Origin: Eubacteriales bacterium
GTDB taxonomy: Bacteria; Bacillota; Clostridia; Oscillospirales; QAKW01
Assembly: GCA_045576575.1 (NCBI GenBank)
Contig: JAZNGR010000062.1
Span: 1 to 38,977 of the forward strand
DNA length: 38,977 nt
Direction: 5' to 3'
Positions 467 through 16,619 of this stretch are shown here, one piece after another. The notes under the pieces are model-generated. The model made no database searches and had not been told where the DNA came from. It saw only the letters and a list, made by a program, of their open reading frames with translations. The translations under genes and the position numbers were made by a program. The stretch's first letter is position 1. Every line of letters begins with the position of its first letter.

Positions 467-1114
467 TTATTTGACCCGGATTCGCTGGCCTGGATAAATC
501 AGATTTGGATTCTTAATCCCATTCCATTGTACAATCTGGTTCACCGTGGTGCCGTACCTCTTGGCGATGGTAGAGAGGTTATCACCACGCCGCACGGCAT
601 ACCACACGGCTTGAGATGATCCGCCTCCGACCTTTTGATTCACGATCGCCTGGATCGCGCTTGGGTCATAGCCAGCAGCAGCAAGCCGCTTCTTCCGGTC
701 ATCGCCGTTACCCCACTTGCCTGCTATCACTTCGTCTGCGATCTCTTCGTTACTCTTCTTGGCGTCGGCCACATGCTCTACGATCCGGACGCCGTTCAGG
801 GTCTCACCCCAGCCGTAGAACTTAATGCCGGCGGTAGATGTCAGGCGCTTGCCGTCGGAGTAGTAGGTGCCGTGGTCACATACGATCACATGCTCATAAG
901 GGCTGGATGTGTCAGTAAAGACTGGCACGGCGCAGTTAGTCGGCACACTTGAGATGTCATGCAGCGTCCCGGCGTTCCGGTTAGCTTCCATCGCTTCCTT
1001 CGCGCTTGCGTACTTTGAGCCGATCCCAAAAGCCAGCCGTACGTTCTGCAAACAATAGCCAGCCCTGGTTCCCATCCTGCTCAAGTTGAAAGGTTTAATC
1101 TGTTTCCACGCCAT
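467..1114 (-). CDS. Endolysin: N-terminal Cys/His peptidoglycan hydrolase domain, CW_7 (Cpl-7-like) motif and C-terminal LysM
   Basis: It follows the holin. The motif [28 protein letters not shown] matches the CW_7 repeat, and [43 protein letters not shown] is LysM. AGYCLQNV and HVIVCDHG suggest a papain-fold (CHAP/NlpC-like) amidase; that assignment is inference. Confidence 0.85.
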
Positions 1115-1228
1115 CTATTCGTCCTCCTTTTTTTCTAAATCTTCATCCTGGATCTCACCGTTATGCTCTGCGATGTCAGCAAGTAACTGTTCCGGTGTGA
1201 TTTCTTCGACTTGTTTTTCTTCTGCCAT
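1115..1228 (-). CDS. Small acidic protein (37 aa) between holin and endolysin
   Basis: Hand translation gives MAEEKQVEEITPEQLLADIAEHNGEIQDEDLEKKEDE. A strong RBS precedes it (AAGGAGGATTAAACA-ATG). Its TAG stop abuts the endolysin ATG. It is below the ORF-track size cutoff. Confidence 0.55.
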   Translation of the reverse strand: MAEEKQVEEITPEQLLADIAEHNGEIQDEDLEKKEDE

Positions 1229-1242
1229 TGTTTAATCCTCCT

Positions 1243-1509
1243 TTACTTTTCCAATACATTTTTCACGCCACTGAATAGGCCGCAGGCGCTCAAGCCCAGG
1301 GCCACTCCAATCACGATTCCCTCGATCGGGTGGCACCCCTGATAGGCGACGTACACTAGGAGACCGGCCAAGAGGCCCAGCCCTAGATCTACCAGCGGGA
1401 TATATTTACTATCTAGGCCCAGTCTTTTGACCACTTCGGCAAGCGCTACTATAAGCGCCACCTGGGCGACTGGAGTGACCAGATAGGTAATTAAATTCAC
1501 CGTGTCCAT
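1243..1509 (-). CDS. Holin (A118/SPP1-type small multi-TM protein)
   Basis: It is 88 aa with hydrophobic helices (VAQVALIVALAEVV, LGLGLLAGLLVYVAY, IVIGVALGLSACGLF). The RBS is AAGGAGG. It lies immediately upstream of the endolysin. Confidence 0.8.
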   Translation of the reverse strand: MDTVNLITYLVTPVAQVALIVALAEVVKRLGLDSKYIPLVDLGLGLLAGLLVYVAYQGCHPIEGIVIGVALGLSACGLFSGVKNVLEK

Positions 1510-2855: not shown

Positions 2856-3692
2856 CTAGTTTAGGCCCAGCATGGCCTTCATGTCGGCATATTCGTCATT
2901 TATATTTTTTCGGCGGTGCGATTTGCCCTTTACCTCGATCGGAAAGCACTTTTCCAGCAACCGGTCATAGATCCGGTTATCTGACATGTTTGGCGGGTTT
3001 TTGATCGCCCCCAGGGTCAAGTTTGTGGTGATAATCATAGGGAGGCCGGAGCGGTACCTGGCGTCCACCACGTTAAACACGATCTCCTGCATGTACTCGG
3101 TCTTGCGCTCCGCTGCCAGATCGTCGATCACCAGCAGGTCAAACTTGTTCAAGTTGTCGAGGTATTCCTGCCGGCCCTCGAAGGTCTCTTGCATTTTATT
3201 CGCGATCCGGGCGAAGTTAGTCATCATCACCGGGATGGCCTGATCGACCAGCGCGTTGGCGATCGCCGCCGCCACATACGTTTTACCGGTTCCCACATTC
3301 CCATATAGGAGAAGGCCTTTGCCGCCCTCTTTGAAGGTCTTGAAGTTATCTACATAATTCCTGGCCGCTTGCATTACCTTTGGATGGCTGCCATCGTCAT
3401 TGTAAAACGTCCAGGTGGTGAGCTGGCTATCTGGGAATCCAGTGCGCCTCATCCGCTCGATTTTGCGCAAGCGTTCGTCATTTTTGCGGGCCGCCTCTTC
3501 GGCTTCCAGAGCTTGCTTTTGACATTCGCATATACACCGCACTTTGCGCTCTTTGTCCATGAAGGTGACTATCGTTTCGCGCTTTCCATCGCACTTTTTA
3601 CACCGGAGGAGGCCATCGTCGCCCTTGTAGGTTTCTTCGGTTGGCTCCGGTACGTTCGTACTGATTTTAGTAATCATTTCGTCAAAATCCAT
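2856..3692 (-). CDS. DnaC/IstB-like AAA+ helicase loader with N-terminal zinc-ribbon
   Basis: Walker A is LLLYGNVGTGKTY and Walker B is DLLVIDDL. The N-terminal motif is CKKCDGK...CICEC. It sits next to the replication initiator. Confidence 0.85.
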   Translation of the reverse strand: MDFDEMITKISTNVPEPTEETYKGDDGLLRCKKCDGKRETIVTFMDKERKVRCICECQKQALEAEEAARKNDERLRKIERMRRTGFPDSQLTTWTFYNDDGSHPKVMQAARNYVDNFKTFKEGGKGLLLYGNVGTGKTYVAAAIANALVDQAIPVMMTNFARIANKMQETFEGRQEYLDNLNKFDLLVIDDLAAERKTEYMQEIVFNVVDARYRSGLPMIITTNLTLGAIKNPPNMSDNRIYDRLLEKCFPIEVKGKSHRRKNINDEYADMKAMLGLN

Positions 3693-3706
3693 GGCTTCCT
3701 CCTCTG

Positions 3707-4378
3707 TTAAAATGGTAGATCGCCCGCGGTGCTTAATTTTATGTACTCTTCCTCATCCGGCGCCATTTTGGGCTTTCTTTTCGCCGCGTCTCGCCTCGCC
3801 CAGTTTCGGATCGTGGCCAGATAGTTTTTGTACTTCTTGCCGGTGCTTTCACAATAGGCCGACACTTCCTCTATTCTGGCCGCCCAGTCATTGGGGAACT
3901 CATCCTTTAGCTTGGCAAGCTGGTCATCGGCGAGTAGTACATTTTTATATTCGCCATACCTAGCGCGCGTTCCTTTTTTATTTTCTTTATTATCTTCTTC
4001 TTTATATATATCTTTATTATTAGGTAAACTTTGTTTACCACCCCCCATTAAACTTTGTTTACCACCCTGGTCAACTTTGTTTACCACCCCATTAAACTTT
4101 GTTGCATAGTATTCACAAAACTTCACCCCGTTTACCACCTTGTCGCGCTTTTCGATGAGACCCTTTTCCATCAAGCCCTTTAGGTTTTTGATCACGCCCT
4201 GCTTGGTCGAGTTCGTCCACTCGGCCAGGTACCGGAGGCTTCCGTCGTAAACTTGGCCCTCCACTTGACTGAATCCGTAGATCACGGCATAAACCAGCAG
4301 CTCATTCCCTTTTAGGCCCAGCTCGGTCAACATCCAGCCCTGGATTATAGTGTAGTTCGTGTCTTTTAATAAGCTCAT
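3707..4378 (-). CDS. Replication initiator / replisome organizer (winged-helix N-terminus, DnaD-like C-terminus)
   Basis: The N-terminus LLVYAVIYGFSQ...GSLRYLAEWTNSTKQGVIKNLKGLMEKGLI is HTH-like. The C-terminus KYKNYLATIRNWARRD resembles the DnaD/DnaB_2 motif. The gene contains DNA iterons. Confidence 0.8.
   Translation of the reverse strand: MSLLKDTNYTIIQGWMLTELGLKGNELLVYAVIYGFSQVEGQVYDGSLRYLAEWTNSTKQGVIKNLKGLMEKGLIEKRDKVVNGVKFCEYYATKFNGVVNKVDQGGKQSLMGGGKQSLPNNKDIYKEEDNKENKKGTRARYGEYKNVLLADDQLAKLKDEFPNDWAARIEEVSAYCESTGKKYKNYLATIRNWARRDAAKRKPKMAPDEEEYIKLSTAGDLPF
4026..4139. repeat. Iteron array (putative phage origin of replication) inside the initiator gene
   Basis: AAACTTTGTTTACCACCC(C) occurs at 4026-4044, 4050-4067 and 4073-4090. 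Partial copies lie at 4094-4103 and 4130-4139. The period is 22-24 bp. An AT-rich stretch at 3966-4025 adjoins the array. Confidence 0.7.
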
Positions 4379-4411
4379 TCTTGGTGTATTCCTTTTCGTT
4401 AGTCGTTATTA

Positions 4412-4789
4412 TTAAAATGGGAAGGCGTCGTCGCCAGGCGCTTCGGCAGCGTCGGCGTCGGTGATGTCGCGATCATCGCGCGGCACGAAGTCCACCGTGG
4501 CCGCATGTACTTCATAGACCTTCTTGGCCTTGCCGTCGCTCTCGATGAGCGTGTGGGTCTGCAAGCTGCCAGTTAGTGAGATCGGCGCGCCTTTCTTAAA
4601 CCACTTGTTTACAAACTCGGCCGTTTTACTCCATGCGATGATGTCGATGAAAAACACCTCTTTATCACGACTGGCCGGGTTTATCTTCTCATTTGCGATC
4701 GTAAACCGGCACACGCTGGTTCCGGAGGGCGTGGCGCGAAGGTCTGGATCTCGCACCAGCCGCCCTATCAGTGATATGCTATTTAGCAT
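4412..4789 (-). CDS. ssb: Single-stranded DNA-binding protein
   Basis: It has an OB-fold N-terminus (MLNSISLIGRLVRDPDLR) and the acidic tail DDAFPF. The start at 4789 has the RBS AAAGGAGAAAACA-ATG; the longer track ORF (to 4873) overlaps the ERF gene. Confidence 0.9.
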   Translation of the reverse strand: MLNSISLIGRLVRDPDLRATPSGTSVCRFTIANEKINPASRDKEVFFIDIIAWSKTAEFVNKWFKKGAPISLTGSLQTHTLIESDGKAKKVYEVHAATVDFVPRDDRDITDADAAEAPGDDAFPF

Positions 4790-5327
4790 TGTTTTCTCCT
4801 TTCTTCTCTTTAGTTTTAACACCGCACTCATAGCAGAGCGCTTTTCCGTATGTTTTCCTGGTGCCATAGACAATCTGGCTGCCGGTCATGCCACCATGAC
4901 CTTCTATAACGCTTTTACAGGCCTCGCAGCGCTCGACGTTGGTTACATCGGCGTCTTTGGTGTCGTCAATCGCCAGGAGGCCGTTTAACGCGTATTTCCG
5001 GGCATAGCTGGAGGCGGAGCCGGTGACTTGACTCGCGTCCATTCCTTTTTTCGCGTCATCCTCTCTAGCGAAGGCCGAGACCGAATAGGCGGAGCTGGGA
5101 GCCTCGGCGTCCACAAAACTGGCCGTGGCCACGATGTAGTAGCGCTCGCCCACCTGCCGCACGTCATCGGTCAAATGTATAAATCCTTTATGTTTCGCCA
5201 GCAGGGGCTTCACCGCGCCCAGGATGTCCTCGCAAGATCTGAATTTGTAACCGCCGAACTTATTTAACTGACCCTTTGGCACATCTAACTCGGTTTGAAT
5301 TGACTGTAATTTTCCGGCCGTGTTCAA
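4779..5327 (-). CDS. ERF-family single-strand annealing recombinase with C-terminal zinc ribbon
   Basis: ERF-like motifs include NKFGGYKFRSCEDILGAVKPLL and GSASSYARKYALNGLL. The C-terminal zinc ribbon is CEACK...CYECG. The start codon is TTG. Confidence 0.8.
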   Translation of the reverse strand: MNTAGKLQSIQTELDVPKGQLNKFGGYKFRSCEDILGAVKPLLAKHKGFIHLTDDVRQVGERYYIVATASFVDAEAPSSAYSVSAFAREDDAKKGMDASQVTGSASSYARKYALNGLLAIDDTKDADVTNVERCEACKSVIEGHGGMTGSQIVYGTRKTYGKALCYECGVKTKEKKGENNAK

Positions 5328-5577: not shown

Positions 5578-5805
5578 TTATACTCTCGCTGGTTCTTCGA
5601 GTTCGTCATTTATCAGATCCCACATTTCCTCGCTTGATATGTTAAACGTCCGCTGCACTTTACTCCAAAAGGTGATGTTGCCGTCTCCCTGGCCGTTCTC
5701 GATCTTTGCATAAGCCTGGCGGCTCATGGTGAGCTTGCGCGCCATTTCTTCCTGTGTTAGGCCGTACCTCACACGGATGATTTTTAGTGATTTGTTTTCT
5801 TTCAT
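5578..5805 (-). CDS. Cro-like XRE-family HTH regulator
   Basis: The HTH is LTQEEMARKLTMSRQAYAKIENG. It belongs to the leftward early operon, divergent from the CI-like gene. Confidence 0.8.
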   Translation of the reverse strand: MKENKSLKIIRVRYGLTQEEMARKLTMSRQAYAKIENGQGDGNITFWSKVQRTFNISSEEMWDLINDELEEPARV

Positions 5806-5813
5806 TCCCCTGT

Positions 5814-6005
5814 TTATCTCCTTTCCGGGCGGTAGCCCTTTCTTACTAGCCGCGCGTATTCCCTGGCGGCTGCTTGCATTTCTTGAGGTGTTCCTTCAAA
5901 CACCATGATCTTGTAAAGCTTCCTTTTGCTATCGGGTAAAGCCCGGATGTAGTCTAGTTGTTGTCTTGATGTTATTCGGCGCACCCCTTTCGTGTGTTGC
6001 GTCAT
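5814..6005 (-). CDS. Hypothetical early protein (63 aa)
   Basis: It is the first ORF after the leftward early promoter. The RBS is weak, so confidence is moderate. Confidence 0.55.
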   Translation of the reverse strand: MTQHTKGVRRITSRQQLDYIRALPDSKRKLYKIMVFEGTPQEMQAAAREYARLVRKGYRPERR

Positions 6006-6162
6006 CTTGTCACAACTTCATTATACAAAAAATGTAAATAAAAGCAAGCATTTTGTTATTTTAATTTTGCAAATACTTTTCCACATGTTGCACTTTGTCG
6101 CGAATATGTGCTAATATAATTTTCGACCGCAAGGCATACCGAGCGGCTGAGGAGGTGCTTTA
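6006..6162. promoter_or_regulatory. Lysogeny/lysis switch region with divergent promoters
   Basis: The minus strand has TTGCTT-N16-TATAAT (plus coordinates 6020-6047). The plus strand has TTGCAC-N18-TAATAT (6088-6117). One TTTTCCACA lies at 6077-6085, next to ATGTTGCAC at 6085-6093. Confidence 0.6.
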
Positions 6163-6486
6163 ATGAGTGACTCGATAGGAAGCAAGTTAAAATCTCTGCG
6201 TAAGGCGCAGGGATATTCCCAGCAGTTTGTCGCCGACCGCGTCGGCATGAAAAGATCCACAATCAGTAACTATGAGATAGATCGTCGCCTTCCCTCCCTG
6301 ACTGACCTCAAACGGATTGCCGACTTCTATGACGTAGGGCTTGATTATTTTGATCTATCTTCGGTGGATAACATCGGTGACTTGCTGGCTCGCGCCAGGG
6401 ATATTTTTACCAGCGCCGAAGTGGCGCAAAAAACAAAAGACGACCTCTACAAAGAGATCGCAAGGTTGTATTTCAAATTAAAGTAA
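6163..6486 (+). CDS. CI-like XRE-family repressor (HTH only, no S24 peptidase domain)
   Basis: The HTH is YSQQFVADRVGMKRSTISNYEIDRR. The RBS is GAGGAGG. It is divergent from the cro-like operon and lies upstream of the integrase. Confidence 0.8.
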   Translation: MSDSIGSKLKSLRKAQGYSQQFVADRVGMKRSTISNYEIDRRLPSLTDLKRIADFYDVGLDYFDLSSVDNIGDLLARARDIFTSAEVAQKTKDDLYKEIARLYFKLK

Positions 6487-6604
6487 TTGTTTTACTGTGC
6501 TTTCGGCTAATACAAAATGTAGCTTTTGTTATATCTTTTGAAGCAACCATAAAGCAACCGACCCCTGTAAATTGGGGCTAAAATGTTATATCTTGAAGTA
6601 AAGG

Positions 6605-8191
6605 ATGTTGTATGTGAGAAAAAGAAAAATCAGAGTGGTTATTTATATTCGCTATTCTTCGCACAACCAGGATGGGTCATTTTCGACCGAGTATCAGTTG
6701 GCGGAGTGCAAGCGCTACCTAGAGGACAGTGGGTATGAGCTTGTCGAGGTTTATATCGACGAAGCAAAAACCGGTAAGAAGGTCGCAGGGCGTGACGCTT
6801 TCGATCGTATGATGTATGAGGCTTCACTAGATAAGTTCGAGAAGATTATCGTTTTTTCCTTCTCGCGTTCGTTCAGAAATACCAGAGACGCGCTAAACTA
6901 TAATCACGAACTACGCGAAAAGTACGGCATTGTCATTGAATCCGTTATCGAGCGCATTGACATGTCAGATCCACATGGCAAGTTTTCGGGTACGAACCTC
7001 TTTGCCATGCACGAGCTTCAATCCGACATCACGGCCGCGCACGTTAAGTCCGGCATGTATATTGCAGCTCAACAGGGGTACTACCTGGGCGGCTTTATCC
7101 CGCTCGGCTATGAGGTATATGGCACCGGTGAGTTCAGCCGAGGCCGGGAGCGTAAAAGGTACCGGATCAACGAAGAGGCGGCCAAGATCGTGAGGGAGAT
7201 ATACCGACTGTTCGCCGACGGCTTCTCTATCGGGCTTATTCAAAAAATGATGAGAGATAAGGGCGTGCGTGGATATTATGGAGACGCCATCACCAGAAAA
7301 AACATAGCTCGGACGCTTCGCTCGGAGTTTTATATTGGCACGCGAAAATACAATGTTAAAGGGTACGATCCGCTAGAGATCAAAAACTGTGTACCCGCCA
7401 TTATAGATATGGAGACCTGGAACAAAGTGCAGGCGCGCCATGCCGAGCATAAAGTCGCCAAGGGAAGGGTTACAAAGCGGGTCTATGGCCTCACCGGCAA
7501 GATGGTCTGCGCAAAGTGTGGAGCGCATATGTTTGGCACCTGCAAGCATAAAAGCAAGACCGCGGACGGTATGGATAGAGCTTACTATGTTTGTTCAAAT
7601 AAGAAAATAAGATCCACCTGTAACGCGTTAAGTGTTCGCAAACAGCATGTGGAAAAGTATTGCCTACAACAGATCCGGGAGAATATCTTAAACGAAGAGG
7701 CCATGCGCGCCATATCGCAGCAGATAGCAAGCGAAGCTGGTAACACTTCGGATGATATGGCAGCCGAGAAGAAGAAGGCCGAGCGGAGAAAAGAAAAGGT
7801 CGCCGGTATTTTGAAAAATATCAAAAAAGACCAGTACGAAGGCGAGATCACCAAAGAACTAGCCGAGGAGATGTCGGCGGAATATGAGCGGGAGCTGGTC
7901 GAGTTAGAAATTGCCGTACAAGGCCTCCAGCAGGCTCTAGAAAGCGCGATAACACCCGAAGGCGTGTATTTATACCTCCAGGAGCTTTTAAGCTACCACA
8001 ACTCAAATGAGGACGAACTAATAAAAGTTTTGTTCGATAAGCTAGTCGATAAAATCATTGTCCATGACGATCGAATTGAGCTACACTTGATCGTCTTTCC
8101 TTTTGCCCATATGGGGTATAATAACCCTTCCGCTCCGCCTTGCGTCCGCTTAAGTACCCAAGCTACAAAAAAAGAAATTGGCTGTAGATAA
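6605..8191 (+). CDS. int: Large serine recombinase (integrase)
   Basis: The N-terminal resolvase motif VVIYIRYSSHNQ carries the catalytic Ser. A recombinase domain, the zinc ribbon CAKCGAHM...YYVCSNK and a coiled coil follow. The ATG at 6612 is a possible alternative start. Confidence 0.9.
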   Translation: MLYVRKRKIRVVIYIRYSSHNQDGSFSTEYQLAECKRYLEDSGYELVEVYIDEAKTGKKVAGRDAFDRMMYEASLDKFEKIIVFSFSRSFRNTRDALNYNHELREKYGIVIESVIERIDMSDPHGKFSGTNLFAMHELQSDITAAHVKSGMYIAAQQGYYLGGFIPLGYEVYGTGEFSRGRERKRYRINEEAAKIVREIYRLFADGFSIGLIQKMMRDKGVRGYYGDAITRKNIARTLRSEFYIGTRKYNVKGYDPLEIKNCVPAIIDMETWNKVQARHAEHKVAKGRVTKRVYGLTGKMVCAKCGAHMFGTCKHKSKTADGMDRAYYVCSNKKIRSTCNALSVRKQHVEKYCLQQIRENILNEEAMRAISQQIASEAGNTSDDMAAEKKKAERRKEKVAGILKNIKKDQYEGEITKELAEEMSAEYERELVELEIAVQGLQQALESAITPEGVYLYLQELLSYHNSNEDELIKVLFDKLVDKIIVHDDRIELHLIVFPFAHMGYNNPSAPPCVRLSTQATKKEIGCR

Positions 8192-14151: not shown

Positions 14152-14505
14152 TTACCAGCAGGGTGTATTAGCTGGCCTTAAAGTTTCTATTCCGTCATAG
14201 TCATCCACATAATAATCCATGCCTCCCGGAATCTCGACCACTTCCAGTTCAGAAAAGTTAGTGTTCGCCTTTTCGCCAAGCTCCTCGACAACTTCGATCA
14301 GCGTGGGATCTTCCCTATACTCTTCATAAAGGAGAAGGCAGTCACGGTCACTCTTCGGGCGCACGCCATCCTTGAGGCCGTCCGTGTAACAACTCCCACG
14401 GTAAAACCTGCAAGGTAGCCCTTTCTTTTGGCAATATAACCGGTAGCCTTCTTCGGACACATCGAATCCGCCATAACATTTGTTGAGTATTACTTTCTTG
14501 CTCAT
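14152..14505 (-). CDS. Hypothetical protein (117 aa; MSKKVILNKCYGGF... family common in Firmicutes phages)
   Basis: It is the first ORF after the promoter at 14534-14562. The RBS is AACGAAAGGTAATAA-ATG. Confidence 0.7.
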   Translation of the reverse strand: MSKKVILNKCYGGFDVSEEGYRLYCQKKGLPCRFYRGSCYTDGLKDGVRPKSDRDCLLLYEEYREDPTLIEVVEELGEKANTNFSELEVVEIPGGMDYYVDDYDGIETLRPANTPCW

Positions 14506-14533
14506 TTATTACCTTTCGTTTATTTATATTTCC

Positions 14534-14562
14534 ATTTTATGTCAAAAAGCATTATATGTAAA
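14534..14562 (-). promoter_or_regulatory. SigA-type promoter TTTACA-N17-TAAAAT (paralog of the promoter at 2407-2435)
   Basis: The minus strand has TTTACA (plus 14557-14562), a 17-nt spacer and TAAAAT (plus 14534-14539). The surrounding ~75 bp is about 70 percent identical to 2380-2455. Confidence 0.6.
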
Positions 14563-14580
14563 TACTTTTATTTTCAATTT

Positions 14581-14640
14581 TCGCTCTTTTTCGACAAGGT
14601 TTTCCACATTTCCACAGAGTTTTCCACAGGCGATATTATG
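14581..14640. promoter_or_regulatory. Triple DnaA-box-like array upstream of the promoter
   Basis: TTTTCCACA lies at 14600-14608, TTTCCACA at 14609-16 and TTTTCCACA at 14620-14628. TTTTCGC/TTTTTCGA tracts precede them. Confidence 0.5.
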
Positions 14641-14655
14641 AAATAAAATATCATT

Positions 14656-14684
14656 TTAACCAAGTGGTTAAATTGGTGTATAAT
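14656..14684 (+). promoter_or_regulatory. Promoter-like element with palindromic operator
   Basis: The -10 TATAAT is at 14679-14684, preceded by GTG. The -35 TTAACC is at 14656-14661. The -35 is embedded in the palindrome TTAACCA-AG-TGGTTAA (14656-14671). Confidence 0.45.
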
Positions 14685-14690
14685 AAAAAA

Positions 14691-14905
14691 GCCCCCTCTT
14701 CGGCACTTCGGGCGCTGGGATCGAGGGGCTGCACCGTAATTGTCGCCTGAAAAAACGAAGCACTGATAGGGCGGCCGGTGTTTAAGTCGGGAACAAGGGC
14801 AGTGCCTTGGGGTCGGAGATCTTCGGACTGGCCGACCTCCCGCACCACTGACCTGCCATGTGTAGGATCAGTTATAAGGGCGGCGGTGGGGCCGTTCCTT
14901 TTTTT
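14691..14905 (+). ncRNA. Candidate structured small RNA A (~215 nt), family unknown
   Basis: It runs from the promoter at 14656-14684 to a hairpin plus T7 at 14881-14905. It is GC-rich with helices such as GCCCCTC/GAGGGGC and GGTCGG...CCGACC (14811-14837, UUCG-capped). No credible ORF is present. Confidence 0.4.
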
Positions 14906-14906
14906 G

Positions 14907-14915
14907 TGGTATAAT
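14907..14915 (+). promoter_or_regulatory. Extended -10 promoter-like element TGGTATAAT
   Basis: It is an exact TGGTATAAT immediately after the RNA A terminator. Confidence 0.4.
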
Positions 14916-14921
14916 TAAAAA

Positions 14922-14975
14922 TGAGTCCAATTGTTTTACAACAGAAAAAGGCCGGATTCCATCGCGGCCTTTTTT
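14922..14975 (+). ncRNA. Candidate short RNA B (~55 nt)
   Basis: It runs from the promoter at 14907-14915 to the bidirectional terminator GGCCG(14950-54)/CGGCC(14965-69) plus T6. Confidence 0.3.
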
Positions 14976-15144
14976 GTGTGTGTAGAGACAGTCTTTTGGC
15001 GAGGCTGTCAAGTATAGTAGTGTGCGGATGTGGAGGTTATGCCCCCCGCACGCGAGCTTTCCCATTCGGGTCATCCTTCCGGACTAGGCACGGTCTCCGT
15101 AGAGTTACACCAGAACCGTTATTTATTAGAAGCGGCCGCCCGCT
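14945..15144 (-). ncRNA. Candidate structured small RNA D (~200 nt), family unknown
   Basis: It runs from the minus-strand TGGTATAAT (15151-15159) to the shared terminator at 14945-14969. Hairpins include AGCGG-GCGG-CCGCT, ACGGTTCTG...CGGAGACCGT, GTGCGG...CCGCAC and GACAG...CTGTC. No credible ORF is present. Confidence 0.4.
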
Positions 15145-15150
15145 GCTTTC

Positions 15151-15159
15151 ATTATACCA
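15151..15159 (-). promoter_or_regulatory. Extended -10 promoter-like element TGGTATAAT (minus)
   Basis: Plus-strand attatacca at 15151-15159 reads TGGTATAAT on the minus strand. Confidence 0.45.
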
Positions 15160-15160
15160 T

Positions 15161-15225
15161 AAACAAGAGCCGCCGGAATATTCCGACGGTTCCAGGCGCT
15201 CCTCCTACGCTCGGCAGGTGAGACT
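15161..15225 (-). ncRNA. Candidate short RNA C (~65 nt)
   Basis: It runs from the minus-strand TGGTATAAT (15232-15240) to the hairpin CCGTCGGAATATTCCGGCGG (15170-15189) plus CTCTTGTTT. It contains AGGAGGAG. Confidence 0.3.
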
Positions 15226-15231
15226 GTTTTT

Positions 15232-15240
15232 ATTATACCA
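15232..15240 (-). promoter_or_regulatory. Extended -10 promoter-like element TGGTATAAT (minus)
   Basis: Plus-strand attatacca at 15232-15240. It follows the hairpin GGGGCTGG/CCGGCCCC downstream of gene 15295..15537. Confidence 0.45.
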
Positions 15241-15294
15241 CGGAAGGCGAGAGGGGCCGGCAAAACCAGCCCCTTCGAGATATTGGATCACCTC

Positions 15295-15537
15295 CTAGGT
15301 CGTTTGAACCCCGCTGACTTCCAGGCAGCGTCTATACACGGCATTATTTCGCGCCTGGTATTCCTGCTTGACGGCAAGTGGGAGCTGGCGCAGTAAACAG
15401 TCCGGCACATAGCCATTGAAGCTACAGTACACGTCCGGGCCGAGCTGCGTCACCTCGAAGCTGCCATGCTCCATGATTTCCATGAAGCGCTGCCGCTCTT
15501 CCGGGATCTCGAAAGTCGCTTTTATTTGGATTCGCAT
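15295..15537 (-). CDS. Hypothetical protein (80 aa)
   Basis: It is an ORF with the RBS GAAAGGAGATCACCT-ATG and a TATAAT about 35 nt upstream. Confidence 0.65.
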   Translation of the reverse strand: MRIQIKATFEIPEERQRFMEIMEHGSFEVTQLGPDVYCSFNGYVPDCLLRQLPLAVKQEYQARNNAVYRRCLEVSGVQTT

Positions 15538-15586
15538 AGGTGATCTCCTTTCTCGTTAAAGAGCCAGCGACTACATTTTTATTATA

Positions 15587-15805
15587 CTATTTATTTTGAA
15601 GTTCGTTTATTTTTGCTTTAAGATTCCGGTTTTCTCGCTCCAGCTCTCGAATACGCGCTGCTTGGGCGGCGAAGCCGGCTTTGTAAAGTTCGTAATTTTC
15701 CTTTAGATTCTTCATGATTAGATTATAGCACCTTTTAATTACGTCGATTTCGCCGTAATTAGACCGATTTCGTGCCATTTGGAGCTTTGCCATATTTTGC
15801 GACAT
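15587..15805 (-). CDS. Hypothetical coiled-coil protein (72 aa)
   Basis: It is an ORF with a C-terminal heptad-like segment (IRELERENRNLKAKINELQNK). The RBS is weak. Confidence 0.55.
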   Translation of the reverse strand: MSQNMAKLQMARNRSNYGEIDVIKRCYNLIMKNLKENYELYKAGFAAQAARIRELERENRNLKAKINELQNK

Positions 15806-15982
15806 TAGGGGTTTTGTTTACATCGACCTCTGATATGTTAAGTTTTTCGCATTTCTGTTGACAAGTGCCAGGTATTTGTAAAGTTTTTCGGGTTATACCC
15901 CGAAAGCCCGGCAGATTTGGACTAGCACTCCATTTTTGCCGGATTCGCTACTATAAAGCCCTTTTATACATCTCGGCCGACA

Positions 15983-16017
15983 TATAAAGAAAAGTGGCTT
16001 TTCTTTTCAAGTCACTT
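15983..16017 (-). terminator. Terminator-like hairpin at end of tail operon
   Basis: The minus strand reads AAGTGACTT-GAAAAGAA-AAGCCACTT followed by TTTCTTTAT. Confidence 0.45.
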
Positions 16018-16233
16018 GCCCTTTCTTTTGTCTTTGTAGCGATCCGGTCGCGCGCGGCGGCCGCGTATAAACTTCATTGGCGCGTAACCATCCGCCCACG
16101 GCGCGTATTTGCTGGCTCTAGTGCGTTTATATACGCGGCTGTTTACCTCCATCTCATCCTCGGTGTAGTTTTGGTGCTTGGGCCTTGCCTCTGGCCACTG
16201 GCTGCGCCCTTCGCGGGTGGGAATTCTCCGCAC
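16012..16233 (-). CDS. Hypothetical highly basic protein (73 aa)
   Basis: Its GTG start overlaps the upstream TAG by 1 nt. The sequence is very Arg/Lys-rich. A plus-strand ORF mirrors it, so coding status is uncertain. Confidence 0.4.
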   Translation of the reverse strand: MRRIPTREGRSQWPEARPKHQNYTEDEMEVNSRVYKRTRASKYAPWADGYAPMKFIRGRRARPDRYKDKRKGK

Positions 16234-16619
16234 TAGATCTTCCCTTCGTTTTTTAACTTCTCCACTTCGGTTTTGACATAAGAGTTCCCGCCGATCTCCG
16301 GCGAGGTGTAGTGTCCGTAGGTTTCGTGGAATCGCTCCAGCTCCACATCCGTGAGTTTGTTGCCGTTCTTAATGTCTGCGATCAAGCGCACCAGGATGGT
16401 CTTATCGGCCTCATATTCGCTCCTGACCACCTTTCTATCCACGGCGTCGATCTTTATGTTTAACTGGTCAATTTTCGCGTTGGTGGGCGCCATGCTGCTC
16501 TGTAGCCATTTTGTGGCCGCGGCGCTGGCTTTTTCCCATAAATACTCCAGTCCTTTAATAAGAGCCACCAGCCCGGCGATTCCACCCGCTGCTATTGCGA
16601 CAAATTGACCCAGCTCCAT
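16233..16619 (-). CDS. Membrane-anchored coiled-coil protein (128 aa)
   Basis: The N-terminal TM helix is FVAIAAGGIAGLVALIKGL, followed by a coiled coil. Its start overlaps the stop of the 695-aa fibre gene. Confidence 0.65.
   Translation of the reverse strand: MELGQFVAIAAGGIAGLVALIKGLEYLWEKASAAATKWLQSSMAPTNAKIDQLNIKIDAVDRKVVRSEYEADKTILVRLIADIKNGNKLTDVELERFHETYGHYTSPEIGGNSYVKTEVEKLKNEGKI

Follow-up and report, generated by a model that had tools for sequence, protein, structure and literature searches.

Candidate RNA-only moron cassettes in a variable slot of a temperate Firmicute phage

Introduction

Morons in the classical sense of Juhala and Hendrix are autonomous promoter-gene-terminator insertions that carry a protein gene. 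Phage tRNA genes, lambda oop and P22 sar each combine a strong constitutive promoter with a short stable RNA and an intrinsic terminator, and the type I toxin-antitoxin (TA) loci of Firmicute mobile elements (par/Fst RNA I-RNA II, bsrG/SR4 and txpA/RatA), which typically reside on prophages, have an overlap at a bidirectional terminator. To our knowledge, prophage riboregulation has hardly been explored in the phages of uncultured Firmicutes from gut and rumen. In this study, we examine an island at 14641-15294 of contig JAZNGR010000062.1 (GCA_045576575.1, Eubacteriales bacterium), all 38,977 bp of which were analyzed and are called the window, with every coordinate below referring to it unless another phage is named. 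The island holds four predicted transcription units, A to D, none of which appears to carry a credible open reading frame (ORF). The closest documented arrangement is that of lambdoid prophages, where convergent pairs of 51-60-nt small RNAs (sRNAs), each with its own promoter and terminator, lie at a variable moron slot between conserved phage genes (PMC4104026). These sRNAs are found in E. coli, are Hfq-dependent and encoded downstream of PR', group into sequence families whose 3' regions are conserved, and act on demonstrated targets (PMC4104026).

The island is similar to the lambdoid pairs in the sizes of units B and C, in the convergence of B and D, in its variable slot, and in the promoter and terminator that each unit appears to own. 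It is distinct from them in its Firmicute host, in a slot located downstream of tail genes, in two units of about 200 nt, and in that no homologues were found. An earlier reading of the same DNA by a model that ran no searches (hereafter the original prediction) had proposed four non-coding units delimited by promoters and terminators, and this core reading is still the best account of the signals. Relatives strengthen it, because their version of the slot contains short units of a similar kind, one of them a real tRNA gene preceded by an identical junction. The signals exceed chance, the island has no coding potential, the content of the slot varies, and the slot of relatives holds real or conserved RNA genes. 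We tentatively read A-D as RNA-only "morons", that is, candidate prophage small non-coding RNAs (ncRNAs) made from autonomous units and most likely acting by base pairing, and give this reading a probability of roughly 0.45.

Results

The contig is a temperate, siphovirus-like phage of a Firmicute with a coding density of 89%, and its largest ORF-free gap, 789 bp at 14506-15294, is followed by runners-up of 366 and 357 bp. That this stretch would lack a credible ORF is borne out by codon scores, by a check for Shine-Dalgarno (SD) sequences, and by the absence of protein matches. Codon log-odds range from -0.55 to +0.06 for the seven ORFs of at least 30 aa within the gap, and from +0.05 to +0.63 for 16 real small genes taken from this phage; no ORF inside the gap has a convincing SD, and none matches Pfam, PHROG or, by tblastn, other phages. 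For a 125-aa ORF of the island there are 0 matches among 1.84 billion protein representatives, and blastx and tblastx of the island detect no remnant of a decayed gene. The description of the island as GC-rich holds only modestly (51.5% against 49.2% for the contig), with unit A alone reaching 60%. We see it as very improbable that the units hide small or leaderless protein-coding genes, such as one beginning at AUG 14921, at the predicted start of B, or a 68-aa ORF in D. A leaderless start is conceivable at ATG 14921, which lies 6 nt past the -10, and GGAAGGA stands 8 nt ahead of ATG 15065. However, both candidate ORFs continue across strong terminators (the 68-codon ORF that overlaps D spans 14868-15074), their codon scores are -0.41 and -0.17, respectively, and neither the 1.84 billion representatives nor Pfam, PHROGs or phage tblastn offer a match.

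The promoter and terminator elements listed in the original prediction are all present at the positions given there (Table 1). Shuffles predict 0.89 copies of the motif TGNTATAAT in the window, which in fact contains 10, and three perfect copies of TGGTATAAT within 654 bp have a Poisson P of about 5e-7. These three copies, in the promoters of B, C and D, are true extended -10 elements, two of them (B and D) with the full Gram-positive TRTG "-16" motif, whereas the promoter of A, which had been counted as a fourth, has a TG that abuts TATAAT directly. The -35 of A is located within a perfect 16-bp palindrome at 14656-14671 (arms TTAACCA and TGGTTAA around AG; TTAACCAAGTGGTTAA) that is unique in the window and is a possible operator. 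The promoter of B directly abuts the U-run of A's terminator. A hairpin with a U-run, proposed as the end of every unit, is found for A and at the terminator shared by B and D, while C has the hairpin followed by a poor U-run (CUCUUGUUUA). It is also only B and D that converge on one terminator, as A and C have their own, although both pairs had been drawn as doing so. The slot as a whole consists of two cassette arrays that converge on the bidirectional terminator 14945-14975, the minus-strand array being formed by a 72-aa coiled-coil gene, an 80-aa gene, C and D, and the plus-strand array by A and B.

Since B and D are convergent and fully complementary over their shared terminator, a duplex or transcriptional interference between them is possible. 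This 3' complementarity of about 30 nt has an alignment score of 36 against a shuffle maximum of 24, and apart from the shared terminator there is no paralogy among A-D; a 20-nt resemblance of A (14848-14867) to C (15222-15203) was considered and is not significant. Predicted convergent transcripts of about 200 and 55 nt with a common bidirectional terminator fit, in architecture and size, a type I TA-like pair in which D would be the toxin mRNA and B the antisense RNA, and a predicted overlap of this kind in a prophage is shared with par/Fst, bsrG/SR4 and txpA/RatA. Unlike these loci, the island has no toxin ORF and no match to the families: D lacks a small hydrophobic ORF (about 25-60 aa) with an SD, its sole SD-preceded ORF is hydrophilic, stays open through the terminator and, at a codon score of -0.17, looks non-coding, and Rfam returns no toxin or antitoxin RNA. 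We give a TA-like pair next to no credence.

Another hypothesis that rests on the same signals is a transcriptional insulator, in which terminators and facing promoters isolate the late operon from the box-regulated operon that starts at 14505, through termination or interference, and the RNAs are by-products. A minus-strand transcript leaving the late operon would indeed meet four or five successive hairpins or terminators before the 14505 operon (15275-15246, 15189-15170, 14975-14945 and 14731-14685), the plus-strand units point at the late operon and are halted before entry, and the relatives L020 and L092 share the layout. However, a single good bidirectional terminator would suffice, and insulation leaves unexplained the 200-nt payloads as well as the tRNA gene and the conserved short RNA in the relatives' slot, and we consider this explanation quite improbable. 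One of these hairpins, at the 5' end of A, is likely to be a terminator when read on the minus strand, where its U6 would stop transcription ahead of the box region and thus shield that region and its promoter.

Further support for a cassette architecture is provided by syntenic phages, which we traced through the 128-aa gene that ends the late operon (16233-16619) and which comprise L020-L024, L025-L027 and L092-L095. The slot, about 15806 to 14641, is bordered by the terminator of the late operon on one side and by a conserved region of boxes and promoter on the other. The gene order of L020 is that of the window (tail fibre, 128-aa homologue, gap, box array and promoter, phrog_16527 homologue, XRE, RusA, LysM protein, serine integrase), and the two phages share anchors on both sides of the slot (window 15863-15812 with L020 6420-6471, and window 14540-14512 with L020 7507-7537), between which the 1.0-1.3 kb is unrelated in sequence. 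The same holds for L020, L092 and L096 together: the flanks, marked by the AATGTCGCAMAAT motif and the operon leader CCTTTCGTTTAT...TTTCCATTTTAT, are conserved with the window, and the interior is unrelated.

What the relatives carry instead are differing arrays of 46-100-nt promoter/terminator units. Besides a single 97-aa gene, the L020 interval contains extended -10 promoters, four or five in number, each of which directly abuts the U-run of the terminator before it and leads to a terminator of its own after 46-70 nt. L092 has three such units, the middle one being a bona fide tRNA-Met(CAT) (ARAGORN; Rfam tRNA, 57.1 bits), whose promoter junction TTTTTTGTGGTATAATTAAA is 100% identical over 20 nt to window 14900-14919, where the U-run of A's terminator meets the promoter of B. 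The third L092 unit, of about 75 nt and at the late-operon end of the slot, is conserved in L096 (L092 about 5640-5570 and L096 about 2375-2302, both on the minus strand) and is a candidate conserved phage sRNA; no counterpart of it was found in the window. Differing contents between shared flanks place the island in a variable cargo slot populated by short RNA-type cassettes.

The combination of a T-run with GTGRTATAATTAAA was also considered as a signature specific to this phage group and was rejected, as it is a strong promoter of a generic type in Firmicute phages and occurs at 64 IMG/VR loci, mostly ahead of protein genes. Just downstream of the late operon, all relatives examined carry a motif AATGTCGCA(A/C)AAT (window 15793-15807 on the minus strand, L020 about 6403-6416, L025 about 6500-6515, and the slots of L092, L095 and L096). 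A similar TTGTCGCGAATATG is present in the CI promoter region at 6095-6108, and the motif may be an operator or regulatory site.

The main rival explanation is that A-D are scars of cassettes: empty or decayed morons whose promoters and terminators remain after the protein or RNA cargo was lost or exchanged, and whose transcripts have no function. The slot content is wholly different in each relative. In B, the promoter is followed almost at once by a terminator, the junction is identical to that of the L092 tRNA-Met, and what comes next (AAAAATGAGTCC) is similar to AAAAATTGAGTCC, which lies downstream of that tRNA, so that under this explanation B is perhaps the emptied counterpart of the tRNA cassette. 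D has the SD-like GGAAGGA and an AUG-initiated ORF with poor codon quality that continues past the terminator, and neither A nor D has excess structure or homologues. However, three perfect promoter 9-mers and intact terminators are unexpected in drifting DNA, 650 bp of junk would be unusual at 89% coding density, blastx and tblastx reveal no former gene, and at least one short unit of the same slot is conserved between two relatives. We regard scars as somewhat unlikely.

Homology searches were extended to several collections. The island has no blastn match in GenBank phages or PLSDB plasmids, and exact 21-22-mers of A, C and D have none in IMG/VR, JGI metagenomes or GTDB genomes, collections from which the contig itself is absent. 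The comparison with related phages by BLASTN and nhmmer that the original prediction had proposed as a check yields no homologue of A, B, C or D, and the island matches the fetched loci only at promoter and terminator words or in short chance matches. The genes on either side are better represented: the 80-aa gene has four relatives at 69-75% identity, on contigs that lack the island, and for the 117-aa gene (phrog_16527) there are hundreds, none above 54% identity, inside early operons without an upstream gap. Within A, positions 14761-14780 repeat ssb codons 6-12 (SLIGRLV, 4754-4773) in the same sense with 19/20 identities, 15 nt of them contiguous, a longer match than any that 30 shuffles gave. 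Because the match is same-sense, A could not pair with ssb mRNA; only an antisense of A could, for which no promoter is evident, and the match may be chance or a small recombination relic.

No known RNA family accounts for the island. A cmscan of the whole window against Rfam 15 (4227 models) gives 0 matches at the gathering score, and permissive searches (E up to 10 on 14450-15400, and up to 5 on A and on C/D alone) give only chance-level matches of 12-23 bits against thresholds of 37-103, with none to the 6S, SRP, tRNA or tmRNA models. ARAGORN finds 0 tRNA or tmRNA genes in the window; as a positive control, both ARAGORN and Rfam recover the tRNA-Met of L092. The proposals that the island could be a large RNA of the ROOL/GOLLD kind or a c4-type antisense RNA thus find no support, as ROOL, GOLLD, raiA and HEARO are not matched at gathering or permissive scores and the Rfam C4 model is not matched either. 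Pieces of one large structured RNA, or a c4-type immunity RNA, would be in keeping with the size of the gap, the prophage context, and a folding z of -2.1 for the whole plus strand (14690-15150). However, the terminator hairpins contribute most of that z-score, nothing related appears in Rfam even at E of 5-10, and both strands carry promoters, four in all, which together with three or four terminators divide the region, an internal arrangement that argues against a single large RNA. We see almost no prospect for either.

Other candidates were considered and set aside. For a retron or diversity-generating retroelement ncRNA, no reverse transcriptase is found among the window proteins scanned, and the only long repeat of the island elsewhere in the window is the promoter/leader copy. 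The D hairpin GUCC-GGAA-GGAU is like SRP RNA domain IV by eye only, with no match to an SRP model. An anti-defence role had also been suggested, and PADLOC found no defence-related neighbours.

At the other end of the slot, the promoter of A lies back-to-back with that of the 14505 operon, about 95 bp apart, with the TTTTCCACA array between them. Such boxes are enriched in the window (35 against 10.8 expected, allowing at most one mismatch), and the array is kept beside the same operon leader in L020, L092 and L096. The minus-strand operons that start at 14505 and 2377 have promoters and leaders about 85% identical (14506-14571 and 2378-2444), arrays of the boxes precede both (14588-14628, and 2472-2480 with 2513-2521), and one box (6077-6085) is beside the -35 of the CI promoter. 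The shared boxes suggest that several early-type promoters answer to one regulator, which could be host DnaA or a protein of the phage.

Cassettes like those of the island also cluster in another intergenic stretch, 1510-1757, between the holin gene and a 104-aa gene (Table 1). The 80-aa gene next to the island is flanked by an 18-nt inverted repeat (14/18; 15276-15293 and 15538-15555, the latter in its 5' untranslated region, UTR). Its 3' hairpin lacks a U-run and is not part of an sRNA; the SD-like AGGAGGUGAUCC right past the stop codon could pair with the 5' UTR just upstream of the AUG, which would be an mRNA 5'-3' pairing for stability or translational control. A further weakly coding stretch at 15806-16232 has a basic 73-aa ORF (16012-16233; codon score 0.119, no family match), followed by about 200 bp without an ORF that hold conserved non-coding words common to L020. 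More broadly, the segment 8468-16232 between the tail genes and the integrase includes an operon with an XRE regulator, a KGG-repeat protein, RusA and a cell-wall-hydrolase/sporulation-type protein. Among the relatives, L017-L019 have homologues of genes of this segment in early operons beside RecT, so that the phage appears mosaic here. The relatives of the phage genes come from rumen and gut metagenomes and from metagenome-assembled genomes of Clostridia and Bacilli.

Table 1. Coordinates of predicted units, signals and genes (window positions unless L092 is named)
Feature	Position	Strand	Remarks
Unit A	14691-14905	+	Predicted ncRNA, ~215 nt, bounded by promoter and terminator
Unit B	14922-14975	+	Predicted RNA, ~55 nt; 23-nt 5' tail and terminator hairpin
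Unit C	15162-15225	-	Predicted RNA, ~64 nt
Unit D	14945-15144	-	Predicted ncRNA, ~200 nt
Promoter of A	14656-14684	+	-35 TTAACC 14656-14661, 17-bp spacer, -10 TATAAT 14679-14684; 10/12 match
Promoter of B	14905-14915	+	TGTGG-TATAAT, perfect TRTGn extended -10; TGGTATAAT at 14907-14915
Promoter of C	15232-15240	-	TGGTATAAT
Promoter of D	15151-15161	-	TATGG-TATAAT, perfect TRTGn extended -10; TGGTATAAT at 15151-15159
Intrinsic terminator of A	14878-14905	+	7-bp stem, then T7
Bidirectional intrinsic terminator of B and D	14945-14975	both	Perfect; A5, GGCCG...CGGCC, T6
Terminator-like hairpin of C	15160-15189 (hairpin 15189-15170)	-	8-bp stem, GAAUAUUC centre, weak U-run
5' hairpin of A, minus-strand reading	14685-14731	-	GC-rich hairpin, then U6; seen in the sequence itself
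Four TTTTCCACA-type (DnaA-box-like) boxes	14588-14628	+	Slot boundary; in promoter region of 14505 operon
80-aa gene	15295-15537	-	Promoter TAGTATAAT at 15587-15579; 3' hairpin
3' hairpin of 80-aa gene	15246-15297	-	GGGGCUGG...CCGGCCCC
72-aa coiled-coil gene	15587-15805	-	
tRNA-Met(CAT) of L092	L092 5716-5791	-	GC-rich leader of ~85 nt; promoter junction 5885-5904
TGATATAAT	1592	+	Terminator near 1684 (~77 nt)
TGGTATAAT	1688	+	Bidirectional terminator near 1749 (~46 nt)
Holin promoter TGGTATAAT	1538-1530	-	
Holin and endolysin	467-1509	-	
Erf, SSB, DnaD-like and DnaC-like genes	2856-5327	-	
Cro-like gene	5578-5805	-	
CI-like repressor	6163-6486	+	
Serine integrase	6605-8191	+	
Long structural (late/tail) operon	38611 to 16233	-	

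Discussion

Under the reading that we favor, A-D as RNA-only morons, the island would be the non-coding half of a variable accessory ("moron") slot that is filled by six self-contained cassettes, two protein-coding and four ORF-free, each with a host sigma-A-type promoter and an intrinsic terminator. Host RNA polymerase would transcribe A-D apart from the lytic programme, and the units would be released as discrete small ncRNAs that act by base pairing. Judging from their signals, the units are probably transcribed and terminated as drawn, and they may be expressed in the lysogen and serve as riboregulators. For the convergent B and D, a 3' duplex over about 30 nt could form, or the two could interfere with each other's transcription.

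Several results weigh against this reading. The terminator of C is weak, and the payload of B is merely 23 nt ahead of its terminator. The original prediction had pointed to A and D as rich in GC helices; their stability lies within that of dinucleotide shuffles (z of -0.42 for A and -1.14 for D), so that neither has structure beyond that of shuffled sequence. The plus strand of A does fold better than its antisense by 14 kcal/mol (-84.8 against -70.7), which speaks for the reading; in D it is the opposite, G/U-rich strand that folds slightly better (-71.7 against -64.5 kcal/mol) than the strand predicted from the promoter. The strong z of B (-4.0) is owed to its terminator, and the significant z of the C region likewise stems from terminator-type hairpins. 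Nor do the units show complementarity to 50 phage translation-initiation regions above that of shuffled controls. Pairing with SD sequences through CCUCC stretches had been put forward as a possible function; the stretches are not enriched, with one each in A and D, and no phage target exceeds shuffles, including in the longest perfect complementarity. Finally, none of A-D has a homologue in any collection searched, and conservation and covariation therefore lend the payloads no support. We hold our estimate where it is because nothing shows that the payloads are selected. As an orphan prediction without support from conservation, structure or targets, the four units have value as a lead, not as a finding.

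A broader hypothesis, which we consider distinctly unlikely, is that A and D found new classes of phage ncRNA of about 200 nt, that the slot is a recombination hot spot at which RNA-gene cassettes (tRNA, short sRNAs and long ncRNAs) are swapped among rumen and gut Firmicute phages at terminator-promoter junctions (T-run plus GTGRTATAAT), forming an "RNA moron array", and that A is controlled from the box/operator region of the neighboring early-type operon. If the units are expressed, this phage gives its largest gene-free stretch to four ncRNAs, in the place where relatives put other RNA genes, including a tRNA. The moron idea, which concerns mainly protein genes and the Hfq-dependent sRNAs of E. 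coli prophages, would then take in RNA-only cassettes carried by phages that infect uncultured Firmicutes of gut and rumen.

How far, then, does the island agree with what has been described before? With the anti-sRNAs of prophages (AgvB/AsxR) it has only the convergent-pair architecture in common, and there is no Rfam match of any kind. It is similar to phage tRNA genes, oop and sar in its short promoter-to-terminator units, and the homologous slot of L092 holds a real tRNA-Met; it differs from them in that the window has no tRNA, tmRNA or tRNA-like element and no unit is antisense to a recognizable gene. As in classical morons, A-D each have a promoter and terminator of their own, as predicted, and the content of the slot varies between conserved flanks, but four of the six cassettes are ORF-free. 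A-D are thus best filed as unverified prophage sRNA/moron cassettes, an already known kind of arrangement.

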